Assembly (NCBI GenBank): GCA_045535075.1
Contig: JAZSKX010000007.1
Span: 1 to 64,000 of the forward strand
Source of the DNA: Candidatus Spyradenecus sp.
Lineage (GTDB): Bacteria; Verrucomicrobiota; Verrucomicrobiia; Opitutales; UBA953
Length of the DNA stretch: 64,000 nucleotides
Direction of reading: 5' to 3'
In this document: piece after piece, positions 1-64,000 of the stretch
How positions within the stretch are numbered: the stretch's first letter is position 1
Layout: each line of letters starts with the position of its first letter
Program-made: the position numbers and the translations under genes
Notes under the pieces: model-generated
The model's input: the letters and a program-made list of their open reading frames with translations, nothing else
What the model was told of the DNA's origin: nothing
Database searches by the model: none

Positions 1-219
1 ACTCGCCGAAATCCCGCCGCCGGAAACCGTCGCCGTATCGTCCGCAGAAACCGAGATTTCGTAAACATTCCCCGCGGGAACGCTCAGCGTGTAATCCGCA
101 GAAAAGCCCGGTCCGGTCGCCGTCCCGCCCGAAAAACTCAGGCTTTTTGAGACGCTTCCGGTTTTTCCGTCCGGAGAAAATTCTCCCGAGGTTTGAGGTA
201 AAGGCTGAGGAGCGGACAT
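1..219 (-). CDS. 5' part of an unknown gene running off the window edge (MSAPQPLPQTSGEF...YEISVSADDTATV...)
   Basis: Open frame from ATG at 219 to position 1, with an AAAGGA RBS-like sequence upstream; function not recognised. Confidence 0.5.
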   Translation of the reverse strand, partial: MSAPQPLPQTSGEFSPDGKTGSVSKSLSFSGGTATGPGFSADYTLSVPAGNVYEISVSADDTATVSGGGISAS

Positions 220-329
220 GGGGATCCTTTCGTTGCGATTGCTTGGTTACGGAGGGGAAATTAAAAGAGAGGTGAAAACAGAGCGCTTCCGTTCTCTCTA
301 TGTTGGCGAATATAGACGGGTATCCATTA

Positions 330-379
330 AACACAAGCCAAGAAAGATAAATTTTTGTTTATCTTTCTTGGCTTGTGTT
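330..379. terminator. Perfect 22-bp inverted repeat hairpin downstream of the RND operon
   Basis: AACACAAGCCAAGAAAGATAAA (330-351) pairs with TTTATCTTTCTTGGCTTGTGTT (358-379). Confidence 0.7.
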
Positions 380-431
380 CGGATCAAAAAACGTTAGCAG
401 TCTCGGAACAACCTAATGGTCGCCGTCGTTG

Positions 432-3400
432 TTAATGCTCTAATGCGTGGGCGCGGCTTTTGCCTGCCAGGAGTTTGGAGGCGGCGGGAACGACGAGGAG
501 GGAAAGCACGGTTGCGGAGATAAGCCCGCCGAATTGGACGAGCGCGAGCGGGCCGAGCAGTTCGCCGCCGGGTTGGTCTATCGCGAAAATCAGCGGCAGC
601 AAGCCCAGTTCCGTCGTCAAAGAAGTCATAATAATCGGCACGACGCGTTCGAGCGAGCCGATGCGAATTGCGTTTTCCGTATCCATTCCTTCATTACGCA
701 AATCGCGATAACGGTTCATCAGAATCAAGCCGGAGCGCACGCCGAAACCGATAACGGTAACGAAGCCGACAATCGATGCGACGGACAGAATCGGCGCAAT
801 GTAGTGCCCGCCGCCGAAGACGGATGCAAGCGTTCCCGGCGTCGCGATGAACACTGCTGCGATCCCGCCGATGATGCAAAGCGGAATGTTCACGAGCGTT
901 ACGAGCGCGCTGCGTAGGCTTCCGAGCGCGGCGGTGAGCAGAAAAATAATTGCGATGAGAATCGCCGCGCCGAGCAGGTAAAGGCGTTGGGCGGCGGATT
1001 CGCGCGCCTGAATCGTTCCCGCGTACTCGACGGTGCAACCGAGTTCGTGCATCGCGGGATCGAGCTTTTCGCGACAGGCTTTGACGAGGTCGCCGAGGTT
1101 GGAATCCGGCGCGGGATTGCAGGAAATCATGGCTTTGCGGAGTGTGTTATCGCGCAAAATCAGATTGGTGATTTCCTCGCGGGAAACGTCGGCGGCTTCG
1201 CCGAGGCGGACGGCTCGTCCGTTCGTGCCGATGAGTTCGAGGTTGCGCACGTCGTCGACGGACATGCGCAATTCGGGCGCAAGGCGCATAACGATGTTCC
1301 AGCGGTCCTGATTTTTGATGACTTCGCCGAGTTTTGCGCCGTTGATTGCGGTGGAAACCTGCTCGGCGGCTTCGGCAATCGTGAGCCCGTAAACGCCGAG
1401 AATTTCCTGATTGTAGCGAATGCGAATCGTATCGACCATGACTTCGCGGTTGGCGCGTGCATCGGCGACTTCGGGAAGTTTTTCCAAAATTTCCTTGGCT
1501 TTGAGCGCAGCTTGGCGCAGTTGCGGCAGTTCGCTTCCGTAAATATTGATTGCCATTTCGGAGTTGGAGCCGGAAAGAGCGGCGGAAATGCGATGCGCGA
1601 GCGGATAGCCGATCATCGTGGACGTTCCCGGAATCCCTTCGATGGCGTCCTGAATTTTCGCGCGCAACTCGCGTTGGTCTTTTTTCAAATCCACGCGCAC
1701 GAGAATTTCCGAGGCGGAAACGGGCTCGGCGTGTTCGTCATTTTCAGCGCGACCGGTACGCTGGGCAACGCTGATGACACCGTCGATTTTTTCCACTTTT
1801 TTTGCGCATTGGCGGGCGATGCGCTCGGTTTCGTCGAGCGAAGTTCCCGGTACGGCGTTGACGAAGACCGTGTAGCAATCTTCGTTAAACGGCGGGAGAA
1901 AACTCGCGCCGAAAGTGCTCGCCAGCCACAGCGCGCCCGCCGTGAGCATGAGCGTTCCCGCGACCACGCTTTTTGCGCGGCGCAGGCAAAAATTCAGAAT
2001 CGGCGTGTAGAGGCGGCGGATTTGGCGCACGGAAAAACTTTCCTGTGCGGCAGGTCTTGTTTCGCTTGCGGCGGGAACGGCTTGTGCGCTTTTCTTTTCG
2101 CGGAACGCGAGCGAACAAAGTACGGGAACAACCGTTACCGCAACGACGAGCGACATCGCAAACGCGAGCATGAACGAAATGCCGAGCGGACGGAAAAATT
2201 GACCTTCCAAGCCCGAAAGGAAAAGCACCGGCGTGAACACGAGCAGAATAATCACCGACGAGTAGCCGATGGAGCCGAGAATTTCGTTTTTCGCGCCCAT
2301 GAGCACGTCGAATTTCGAGCGACGTTTTTCCGGCGGAAGCGCGGCGTTTTCGGAAAGTTTTCGCCACGCAATTTCGACAAAAATAATCGCGTTGTCGACG
2401 ACGTCGCCGACGGCAACCGCCAAGCCGCCGAGCGTCATGATGTTGATTGCCAAATCAAACATCGGGAAAAACAGGAACGCGAAAAGAATCGAAAGCGGCA
2501 TCGCGGCAAGCGTAATGAGTGCCGTTCGCACGTTCAGCAAAGTCAGGAAAATGACGAGCATGACGACGATACCCGCCGTAAGCAGTGTTTCGGCACCGTT
2601 GGCAAGCGAAAGCTCGATGAAGTCCGACTGGCGGTAAGCGTCGACGTGGAGCTCCATGCCGGCGGGAAGCTGACTTGCGGAAAATTCTTTGACGGCGCGG
2701 TCGACGGCTTGTGTCAGCTTCTGCGTGTTGGCGCCGGGCACTTTTTGCACGGAAAGCACGATCGCATCGGTTCCCATAAAGCCGGCGTTCCCGCGACGCG
2801 GTGCGCCGTCGATTTTGACTTCGGCAAGATCTTCGATTTTTACCGTTCCCGAGGCGTGCGCGGGAACGAGCGAGCGGCGAATTTGCTCAAGCGTTTCAAC
2901 GCGGGAATCCTGTTGGAGCGGAAGTTCCAGCCCGGCGACATCTTCGAGGTAGCCGGCAGGCTCGGCTGAACCGGCGGCGGCAACGGCGGCTTTCAAATCG
3001 TCAATCGAAACATTTGCCTGACGCAAGCGCGCGGGATCGTAAATGATTTGATATTCCGGCAAACGCCCGCCGAGCACGGTAACCTGCCCGACGCCGGGAA
3101 TCGCGAGCAGGCGATTTCGCAAGCGATATTCCGCAAGCTGGCGCATGTCGAGCAGACGCTGATTTTTCTCTTCGGCGGAAAGTTTTTCAAACGAGGCATC
3201 CGGCGTGAGCGCGATAAGCATGATTTCGCCCGTGACGGAAACAATCGGTGCAAGTTCGACGTCAACATTTTCCGGGAGCGATGAGCGCACGCTCGCGAGG
3301 CGTTCCGTGACGATTTGGCGAGCAAGGTAAATATCCGTGTCCCAATCGAAATCCACCCAGACAAATGAGAGTCCGCCGCCGGACGAAGAGCGCACTTCTT

Positions 3401-62069: not shown

Positions 62070-62111
62070 GCCCGCAAATCCCTATAAATACAAGGATTGC
62101 GGGTTTTTTTA
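62070..62111 (+). terminator. Terminator after the tRNA
   Basis: CCCGCAAATCC...GGATTGCGGG followed by a T run. Confidence 0.65.
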
Positions 62112-62135
62112 GGAGCCTAGCCGGTCTCTTCGTTT

Positions 62136-63470
62136 CTACGATTGCCGGAGCGTTTGCGTTGCGGCGGAGATTTTCTTGAGGCAGGAGAGCAGTGCGTCGA
62201 CATCGGATTCGTCGTTGTAAATCCCGAAGCTGACGCGCACCATGCCGGGAAGGCTGAAGTCGCTTCGGCACATACATTCCGTGATGGTTTCATCGCAAAT
62301 TCCGAGCAATCGGCAGACGTACGGATGCGAGCAAAACGAGCCTTGGCGCACGGCGATACCGCGCATTTCGGCAAGTTGTTGCGCGACGTCGGAGTGTAAA
62401 ATTCCCTCAAGGTTAAAGACGAGTACGCCGATGCGGTCCGAGATGTTTTCGCAGTCGGCATAAAGTTTTAGCCCCGGAATTTTTCTTAGCCCGTCGATTG
62501 CGTATTTGAGCAAGCGTTGTTCGTGCTCTTCGATTGCGTCAAAACCGTAGGCATCAAGAATGTCCATGGTTTTAAGCATGGCGACAACACCGACATAATT
62601 TGGAGAACCGACTTCGTAGCGTTCCGGAGCGCTCAAATAAGTCTCCGTCCAATCCGAGACCACATCGACGATTCCTCCGCCGTAGAAGTGCGGGAGACAT
62701 TTTTGGAGGTGTGAAAGCTTGCCGACGACAGCTCCGCCGCCGAACGGCGCGTACATTTTATGGGACGAAAAAACAATGTAATCGAGATCTGCTTCCGGTG
62801 TGTTTCCGCAGGCACTTAAGCGGCGATGAGCGACGATTTGCGTCGCATCAACAACGATTTGTGCTCCATAACGATGGGCGATTTCTGCAATCGCGTGAAC
62901 ATCGTTAACGTAGCCGGTAACATTGGACGCTGCCGTAACGCTTACGAACTTCACCGCGCCGGCGTGTTCCCGCAAAAGGTGTTCGACATCTTCTGTTTTC
63001 AGGCGCCCTTGAGAATCAATATCAATGTAAATCGGTGTTCCGCAATGGCGCCAGGGCAGATCGTTTGAGTGGTGTTCCATGCGGGAAATGAGGACAAGGT
63101 TGCTTTTGTCGGTTATCAATGCCGTTGCGAGTCGATTGAGTCCGTCGGATGCAGAGGTACAGTAAAATGCGGTATATTTCTCCGGGGTCGCTCCGAAAAA
63201 GCGCAGAACGCGTTCCCGCCCGTTTTCGTAAATTTGCGTGGAGTGAACGGATTTTTGTCCCTTTCCGCGCCCGATGGAACCGTAGTAATCCAGTTGCTTG
63301 CGAACTTCGTCGAAAACAGCTTTAAAAGACGGCGTCGTTGCCGAATTGTCGAGGTTGATAAGCGGCGCTTGTGTGCCGTCTTTAAGTGTTACGGGAGCGT
63401 CAAGCCCGATAATTTGATTGCGGATATTTTCGCGAAATTCCGGAGTAATTTGAAAGTCGGTAGTGTCCAT
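62136..63470 (-). CDS. Class V PLP-dependent aminotransferase (cysteine desulfurase-like)
   Basis: [28 protein letters not shown]. Confidence 0.9.
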
Positions 63471-63744
63471 ATTTGAGAGTTTTCCGGATAATATTCTTTC
63501 GCAAGGAAAAATCCACGAATATTTGGCAAGCCCTTTTGCGGGAATTCAATTTACGGTATTAAATCTCACGGGGCAGGCAGATTCAAATGTCGAGTATTCC
63601 GTTCCCGCGTGGGTTATCGTGAAAACATGGAATACGCTTGGTGTTCCCGTGAGTCTTTTGTGGGATACATTTTTTTCTCCGAGTGATGAGTGTACGATCG
63701 ACTACGGAAAGATTTTTTCCGAGAATATGGATTCGGATTTATGA
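63463..63744 (+). pseudogene. YceK/YidQ-like fragment lacking a signal peptide
   Basis: VPVSLLWDTFFSP resembles the downstream paralog; ATGA-coupled to it. Confidence 0.35.
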
Positions 63745-64000
63745 AGCGGGTGTTTGCAGTATTTCTTTCGGGGTGCTTATTGTCGAGTTGTTTGGACTTT
63801 TCGGTGCGGGAACGCATAAGTATGCCGTTTTATTCGACTTTCAAAACGTCGTCGGGTTTGTTGTCGAGTACGGGCAGTTTGCTTGGAGGAGATTTTTTTG
63901 ACGAGAATGCCGTGCCTAATATCGTCTGCTATGCTTGTTCTCTTCCGTTTTATCTTGTGTCGGACACGATTTTGTTCCCTTACGACGGATATCTTTTTTA
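63741..64000 (+). CDS. YceK/YidQ-like lipoprotein running off the window end
   Basis: Hand translation MKRVFAVFLSGCLLSSC...LPFYLVSDTILFPYDG. Confidence 0.65.
   Translation, partial: MKRVFAVFLSGCLLSSCLDFSVRERISMPFYSTFKTSSGLLSSTGSLLGGDFFDENAVPNIVCYACSLPFYLVSDTILFPYDGYLF

Follow-up and report, generated by a model that had tools for sequence, protein, structure and literature searches.

The window analysed here, the whole stretch of 64,000 bp, is positions 1-64000 of contig C8 of a genome labelled G000 (1.95 Mb in 18 contigs, 52% GC, 99.45% complete, with no 16S rRNA in this assembly). It carries genes such as leuS, tpiA and serS and is crossed by a short DNA word, CGGGAAC, which reads GTTCCCG on the other strand and which is scarce in one island (Table 1). 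The original prediction, made from the letters of the window, held that this word occurs far above chance and without strand bias, with about 36 copies in the first 10 kb, about 16 and 20 per orientation. A recount of these 10 kb gave 36 copies (16 + / 20 -). On both strands of the window the word has 175 matches (87 + / 88 -), against a mean of 13.78 in 100 dinucleotide-preserving shuffles (standard deviation 3.82, largest 24), none of which reached 175. Both claims are thus borne out for the whole window.

The same word dominates the genome. No other 7-mer is as common as CGGGAAC/GTTCCCG, of which there are 6528 copies (3169 forward / 3359 reverse), a density of about 1 per 300-380 bp, and the top k-mers at every k from 6 to 12 are all pieces or extensions of it. 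The 8-mer CGGGAACG has 5159 copies in the genome and accounts for 141 of the 175 copies in the window, while the 9-mer GCGGGAACG has 3244 and 92, respectively. The word is non-palindromic, since CGGGAACG differs from its reverse complement. In a logo built from 6527 copies the consensus is R-CGGGAAC-G with a strict CGGGA core. Position -1 is G in 62% and A in 24% of the copies, the base directly 3' of CGGGAAC is G in 79% and the next base is C in 46%, in agreement with the extended form (G)CGGGAAC(G) proposed at first. The logo holds no information outside about -2 to +9 (about 11 positions), with no conserved flank and no AT-rich flanking segments. This absence of an extended consensus indicates that the word is short and not part of a longer repeat element. 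With the word masked for training, an order-2 Markov model of the genome predicts 58.5 copies of GCGGGAACG, giving an observed/expected ratio (O/E) of 55. Changes at the edges of the word are tolerated, with O/E of 35 for R at position 1, 9.8 for A7>G and 12-15 for G9>A/T.

The word is found both in and between genes. On a crude gene call of 1389 open reading frames (ORFs) covering 84% of the genome, 5354 copies are coding (3.26/kb; 82% of copies) and 1176 are fully intergenic (3.78/kb). Shuffling of synonymous codons within genes gave 868 +/- 19 copies and permutation of codons gave 358 +/- 23 (30 shuffles each), so that the observed 5354 represent a 6.2-fold and a 15-fold excess, and the enrichment persists under the codon-preserving nulls named in the original prediction. 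All six reading frames are enriched, with 3223 sense and 2131 antisense copies. The prediction had placed the word in several frames, reading AGT, VPA, RER and GN, as well as between genes. Copies read as AGT (1081), VPA (790), RER (372) and xGN are indeed the main ones, and 1176 of the 6528 copies are intergenic. Among tripeptides with at least 150 occurrences, VPA (866 vs 172 expected) and AGT (1168 vs 237) are the two most over-represented ones in the proteins, while the reversed tripeptides APV and TGA stay at O/E of 1.07 and 0.93. Pressure for the word has altered the proteins.

Replichore polarity was analysed in 20-kb windows of the genome sorted by GC skew. Windows with skew >0.02 contain 1402 forward and 1318 reverse copies (51.5% forward) and windows with skew <-0.02 contain 1193 and 1438 (45.3% forward). 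The small orientation bias follows gene orientation only; the replichore polarity that would have spoken against the prediction is not seen. Gaps between copies are near-exponential, with a coefficient of variation of 1.09, or 0.97 without 16 gaps of >2.5 kb, and even spacing is not seen. Most of these 16 word-free gaps have atypical GC. An MmeI-family type IIG/L gene on another contig (C2:15779-18766) adjoins a 3.6-kb word-free stretch of 41% GC.

Neighbouring copies are not arranged at random. Within 40 bp, GTTCCCG followed by CGGGAAC was counted 265 times. The other three orientation classes gave 90-160, against an expectation of about 204 for each class. Offsets of the 265 inverted pairs peak at 19, and 173 of these pairs are fully intergenic. 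At offsets of 12-30 there are 196 such -/+ pairs, of which 155 are intergenic. Among these 155, 140 lie within 150 bp of the 3' end of a called gene and 41 lie between convergent genes; a T-run follows 117 and an A-run precedes 112, and the median fold energy is -20.3 kcal/mol. As judged from sequence, the inverted word pairs form about 155 terminator-like intergenic hairpins, four of which are listed in Table 1. The available text of two reports (10.1101/2025.10.24.684340; PMC7811141) describes inverted pairs of the DNA uptake sequence (DUS) of Neisseriaceae and the uptake signal sequence (USS) of Pasteurellaceae in terminators. A simple terminator scan with loops of 3-8 bases gave 45 sites vs 41.5 expected and did not list the word hairpins, because their loops are longer.

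Table 1. Features of the window and their coordinates.
Feature	Position	Strand	Remarks
leuS with flanks, test gene	15649..18369	+	11 word sites (12 in the first leuS cut)
Inverted pair GTTCCCG...CGGGAAC	15552..15578		A-run/T-run flanks; 3' of ORF 14592-15530; terminator-like; fold 15535-15600 = -26.1 kcal/mol
Inverted-pair hairpin with T-run	18329..18361		25 bp 3' of leuS (15707-18304); fold 18315-18375 = -33.2 kcal/mol
Inverted-pair hairpin with T-run	20772..20797		3' of tpiA (19965-20732); fold -28.7 kcal/mol
Inverted pair with A-run and T-run	51589..51615		between convergent 50781-51557 (+) and serS 51645-52916 (-); bidirectional terminator-like; fold -25.2 kcal/mol
Word-poor island	20798..35415		10 copies, 0.68/kb vs 3.34/kb in the rest of the window (5-fold poorer)
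C5 DNA methyltransferase	21104-22114		TIGR00675; in the island
Gam-like	24724-25509		in the island; phrog matches of the island: phrog_363, 491, 296, 310
MuB-like	25717-26493		in the island
MuA-like transposase	26508-28553		in the island

The 9-mer GCGGGAACG was counted in related genomes. All 19 of 19 genomes of the genus (Candidatus Spyradosoma) contain 340-5581 copies. Counts were 9-176 for the 102 genomes from four other genera of the family, near or below the reversed-word control, and 0-196 for 16 genomes from other families of the order. No genome outside the genus is clearly above this control (0/102 in the sister genera, 0/16 in the other families). Density within the genus is independent of base composition, with 4.85/kb at 45% GC (G009) and 5.16/kb at 59% GC (G003), and genus loci of 54-65% GC carry the word at 3-5.5/kb. 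The word R-CGGGAAC-G is a genus-specific DNA-level signature. A switch of dialect in low-density species was considered and rejected: k-mer tables from 58-98 kb samples of G001, G002, G013 and G014 show only the same word at lower copy number.

For twelve other species, samples of 34-143 kb were aligned to G000 to analyse the conservation of individual word sites, using the best non-overlapping blastn segment pairs of at least 300 bp, skipping windows with a gap in G000 and taking all other 7-mers as the comparison (Table 2). In the eight high-density species 0.43-0.71 of the word sites are kept, vs 0.15-0.48 of other 7-mers, i.e. 1.4-3.3 times better. In the four low-density species (G001, G002, G013, G014) the word decays like neutral sequence. 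Turnover is symmetric where density is high (70 sites in G000 only, 60 in G011 only) and lopsided where it is low (145 in G000 only, 12 in G001 only), and lost sites are mostly one-base variants of the word. The comparison with relatives called for by the original prediction thus found a word which is clade-specific and, in high-density species, conserved in position above the neutral level.

Table 2. Word sites of G000 kept in twelve other species of the genus.
Genome	Density	Word sites kept	Other 7-mers kept
G011	high	132/202 = 0.65	0.25
G003	high	69/106 = 0.65	0.20
G009	high	32/64 = 0.50	0.15
G018	high	51/80 = 0.64	0.22
G010	high	64/118 = 0.54	0.21
G004	high	33/76 = 0.43	0.24
G016	high	156/232 = 0.67	0.48
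G007	high	59/83 = 0.71	0.37
G001	low	36/181 = 0.20	0.23
G002	low	47/251 = 0.19	0.23
G013	low	41/164 = 0.25	0.24
G014	low	6/86 = 0.07	0.14

The leuS gene was used as a test gene. Most of its word sites in G000 are matched at the same columns of the alignment in other high-density species, and 7 of 12 occur in every one of the eight compared. These columns hold near-cognate sequence, e.g. GTGCCCG or CGGCAAC, in G014 and the sister genera. The G014 leuS locus (L138) has 0 word copies vs 6-12 in relatives, and its columns often equal the sequence of the sister genera. As G014 retains word sites less often than other 7-mers (6/86 vs 0.14), it either never gained them or experienced a pressure against the word. 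The nearest sampled relatives of G000 are the low-density clade G001/G002/G013, followed by the high-density G018 and G004, as judged from identities of ComEC, PilQ, IspF and DprA, conserved gene order and protein samples. This placement indicates that the word is ancestral and that its maintenance was lost. A leuS tree (23 rows, leaving out G017, G019 and the other-family genomes) was rejected as a species tree: it puts G000 beside G016 and is contradicted by the ComEC, PilQ, IspF and DprA identities and the protein samples. On account of this disagreement it was not used for the position of G000.

The word is scarce in DNA of foreign origin. The C5 methyltransferase and the Mu Gam-, MuB- and MuA-like genes identify the word-poor island as a Mu-like prophage remnant, many of whose ORFs match no family. 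Searching IMG/VR for the word hairpin gave 32 loci, none above 0.77 copies/kb in up to 20 kb of flank, so that no word-saturated phage was found among these hairpin-bearing loci. One contig of that database (L260, 19 kb, 48% GC) has 14 word copies and a single copy of the reversed control; its 0.73/kb is close to the density in the prophage of the window, and the contig may be a phage of this genus. Elsewhere in the window, an RND efflux operon (432-6620) consists of a CusA/CzcA-like permease (432-3638), a periplasmic adaptor (3790-5259) and a third gene of 435 aa (5313-6620), and its word density is the usual one.

Comparison of G000 with G016 revealed a mosaic. Of 200 aligned 300-bp windows, 85 reach an identity of 95% or more, and 110 of the remaining 115 fall under 85%. 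Blocks of near identity (97-99%) span 1-11 kb and comprise whole genes or operons, situated in different neighbourhoods; leuS (window 15649-18369, 98%) and ddh (37451-38453, 99%) are examples. Among 30 block ends 12 lie within 30 bp of a word copy, vs 19% of random intergenic points. The mosaic fits frequent DNA exchange within the genus, with an artefact of metagenome assembly as the alternative, the genomes compared being mostly metagenome assemblies. A gene-by-gene mosaic was also noted for G000 against G007. The neighbourhood of leuS is scrambled gene by gene in loci of other genus members (L001, L002, L006 and L009), and leuS-pgk is kept only in G001 and G013.

G000 encodes much of a machinery for DNA uptake. 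ComEC (570 aa, C11:3775-5484) and DprA are present. An operon contains two PilB-type ATPases, a PilT-like ATPase and PilC, and PilM is found with two further genes and a 984-aa secretin PilQ (C12:10654-13605). Seven prepilin-like genes were found, four in tandem and three alone. The gene order from ispF to the pilin operon is not conserved, and the operon was located by DNA query. Pilus and competence proteins are deeply divergent within the genus: between G000 and G016 PilQ shares 41% and ComEC 34% amino acid identity, while LeuRS shares 99%. Of the competence genes proposed for the search, ComEC, DprA and a type IV pilus set were found and ComEA was not. The refuting case of a mere methylation site in a genome without competence genes does not apply to a genome with this set.

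In almost all respects that can be computed, the word behaves as a DUS or USS does. According to the available text of PMC7811141, the USS core has 9 bp and 1,465 copies in H. influenzae, the DUS has 10-12 nt and 1,892 copies in N. meningitidis, both are poor in new DNA, and a molecular-drive model is given for them. Likeness to the USS of Pasteurellaceae extends to a short non-palindromic form with a strict core and softer edges, equal orientations, presence in several frames and in intergenic DNA, inverted pairs at gene ends, poverty in new DNA, restriction to a clade and distorted tripeptide usage. The present word differs from the USS in its phylum, its unrelated sequence, the lack of AT-rich flanking segments and a density several-fold above the H. 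influenzae count given in that text. It also differs in having no clear coding deficit, no excess of one-off core variants and no ComEA found. With the DUS of Neisseriaceae it shares the statistical behaviour, the inverted-repeat pairs as terminators and a type IV pilus with several minor-pilin-like genes, while no dialects were seen, no ComP relative was identified and pilin-like genes persist where the word decays.

In Neisseria the DUS is read by the minor pilin ComP, and in Pasteurellaceae ComN is reportedly predicted as the word-binding receptor (10.1101/2025.06.16.659825). Other genome-wide words were compared as well. HIP1 of cyanobacteria (GCGATCGC) is a palindrome linked to methyltransferases, of unsettled mechanism. 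Like HIP1, the present word is hyper-abundant in and between genes and conserved at the DNA level, but it is asymmetric and no methyltransferase tracking it was found. Chi and KOPS are strongly co-oriented with replication and read by DNA-processing machines; they are over-represented short asymmetric words as well, but the present word is unpolarised and more than ten times denser.

The best explanation of these observations is that the word is kept by a drive at the DNA level and not by selection on proteins or RNAs. The drive favoured here is sequence-biased uptake, which would make the word a DUS/USS-like uptake signal kept by molecular drive, a reading for which we regard the odds as about even. 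By analogy with the known systems, we infer that uptake would be the biased step and that a pilus-associated protein would read the word. In such a mechanism, double-stranded DNA with the word would be bound preferentially by a DNA receptor that belongs to the type IV pilus uptake machine and lies at the surface or in the periplasm. Fragments bearing the word would enter the cell by way of ComEC, be loaded by DprA/RecA and undergo recombination. Alleles with the word would then replace alleles without it more often than the reverse, the word would gradually fill every position tolerated by the proteins, and intergenic word pairs would be co-opted as terminator stems. The original reading of the word as an uptake signal holds in its DUS/USS-like statistics and in the presence of uptake genes; it is weakened by the missing ComEA and by species in which the word decays beside intact uptake genes.

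Several observations weigh against uptake as the cause. In G000 the ComEA models PF12836 and TIGR00426 match only a Tex-like frame of 805 aa (TIGR00426 below its cut-off), and a divergent form of ComEA is possible. The presence of ComEC and DprA is weak evidence because both are widespread, also in bacteria without uptake sequences; matches were found in 10 and 11 of 14 control genomes, respectively. In the low-density G001, G002, G013 and G014 every tested uptake gene is present without internal stops. The genes tested were ComEC, PilQ, PilB1, the PilT-like gene, PilB2, PilC, PilM and its neighbours, the four tandem pilins, the three lone pilins and DprA, with the tandem pilins read in G001, G002 and G013 only and one lone pilin split over two contigs in G002. 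Where tblastn hits to PilB1 and the PilT-like gene seemed to contain stops, these precede the true start codon. Loss of uptake genes among those tested is therefore rejected as the cause of low density, and the contrast between high- and low-density species gives no support for a tie to uptake. Single changes at the five core positions C-G-G-G-A occur at background level, with O/E of 0.3-3.3. The available text of PMC7811141 reports USS/DUS as under-represented in coding sequence, and the densities in coding and intergenic DNA are here near parity, a gap much smaller than that text implies. Loose literature searches gave no paper on uptake sequences or natural transformation in Verrucomicrobiota, and nothing on the topic of uptake was found under the genus name or the word itself; the supplements of 10.1101/2025.10.24.684340 may list further lineages. 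The missing ComEA, the intact uptake genes, the lack of excess core variants and the parity of densities keep alive both a drive other than uptake and a binding role.

It is possible, if rather doubtful, that the word is written or kept by a dispensable DNA-level system other than the uptake machine, perhaps sequence-directed conversion or repair or a self-marking reader, which rewrote about 1000 protein positions and was switched off twice in the genus with pili, ComEC and DprA intact. A drive by sequence-directed repair, nicking or gene conversion that creates or restores the word, through a dispensable gene lost in G001/G002/G013 and in G014, seems fairly unlikely. Such a drive would suit the loss of conservation in four species despite their intact uptake genes, the equal density in coding and intergenic DNA and the lack of excess one-off core variants, as if conversion were efficient and all-or-none. 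The prophage, whose 0.68/kb is about three times the shuffle expectation of about 0.2/kb, may be partly converted. A similar mechanism has been proposed for HIP1, but we know of no repair system that fixes a non-palindromic word of 8-9 bp, and no candidate gene was found. Repair of the Vsr type was rejected: no Vsr (PF03852) was found in G000, and one-off variants of the word by C-to-T or G-to-A change show no depletion, unlike the prediction for very-short-patch repair. An MmeI-family enzyme as the driver was likewise rejected on its patchy distribution, being present in 9 of 19 genomes without relation to word density.

Less probable again, and in our view unlikely, is that the copies, in their thousands, are bound by an abundant DNA-binding protein specific to the genus, such as an organiser of the nucleoid or a marker of self for recombination or defence, and that weak selection maintains each of them. 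The conservation at 1.4-3.3 times that of other 7-mers, the sharply defined core and the lack of the word in foreign DNA agree with such sites, and loss of the protein would explain the neutral decay in four species. The word is, however, unpolarised, unlike the known genome-wide signals Chi and KOPS, and its spacing is near-Poisson and not regular. Selection would also have to override protein sequence at about 1000 positions, and no candidate protein was identified.

That the word is the target of restriction-modification or another methylation system is very improbable. It is short and non-palindromic, like MmeI-family and type III sites. A screen of G000 by motif regex on called proteins, followed by Pfam on 16 candidates, which may miss enzymes, found three type I HsdM and the MmeI-family enzyme already mentioned, the only one not of type I. 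Restriction sites are, however, normally avoided and not enriched 55-fold, and the sites of type I enzymes are bipartite. The low-density G001 and G014 have the MmeI-like gene, which was not found in the high-density G003, G006, G007, G008, G009, G010, G012 and G016. That the word only follows from composition or codon-pair usage, or belongs to a small mobile or REP-like element, is scarcely credible: sense copies do outnumber antisense ones in genes and a few frames dominate, but all six frames and intergenic DNA are enriched, the excess persists under dinucleotide and order-2 Markov nulls as well as those of synonymous shuffling and codon permutation, it does not depend on GC over 45-65% and is absent from sister genera of similar composition, and the restriction of information to about 11 positions and the 82% of copies in coding DNA speak against a REP/MITE-type element.

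The available text of 10.1101/2025.10.24.684340 and PMC7811141 presents uptake sequences as belonging to two proteobacterial families, Neisseriaceae and Pasteurellaceae. If the word is an uptake signal, a gut bacterial genus of Verrucomicrobiota would provide a third, independent case in a distant phylum. Its density would be several-fold above that in the two families, and motif-biased gene flow would be a more general means of keeping to own DNA. Should uptake prove not to be the cause, the word would point to a genome-writing force not known so far. In either case, close relatives differ here in maintenance of the word, which G000 keeps and which decays in G001/G002/G013, a contrast that the classic systems lack. 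A comparison of gene content and substitutions across it could name the reader or driver of the word, and it would address the long-standing question whether such words accumulate by drive alone.

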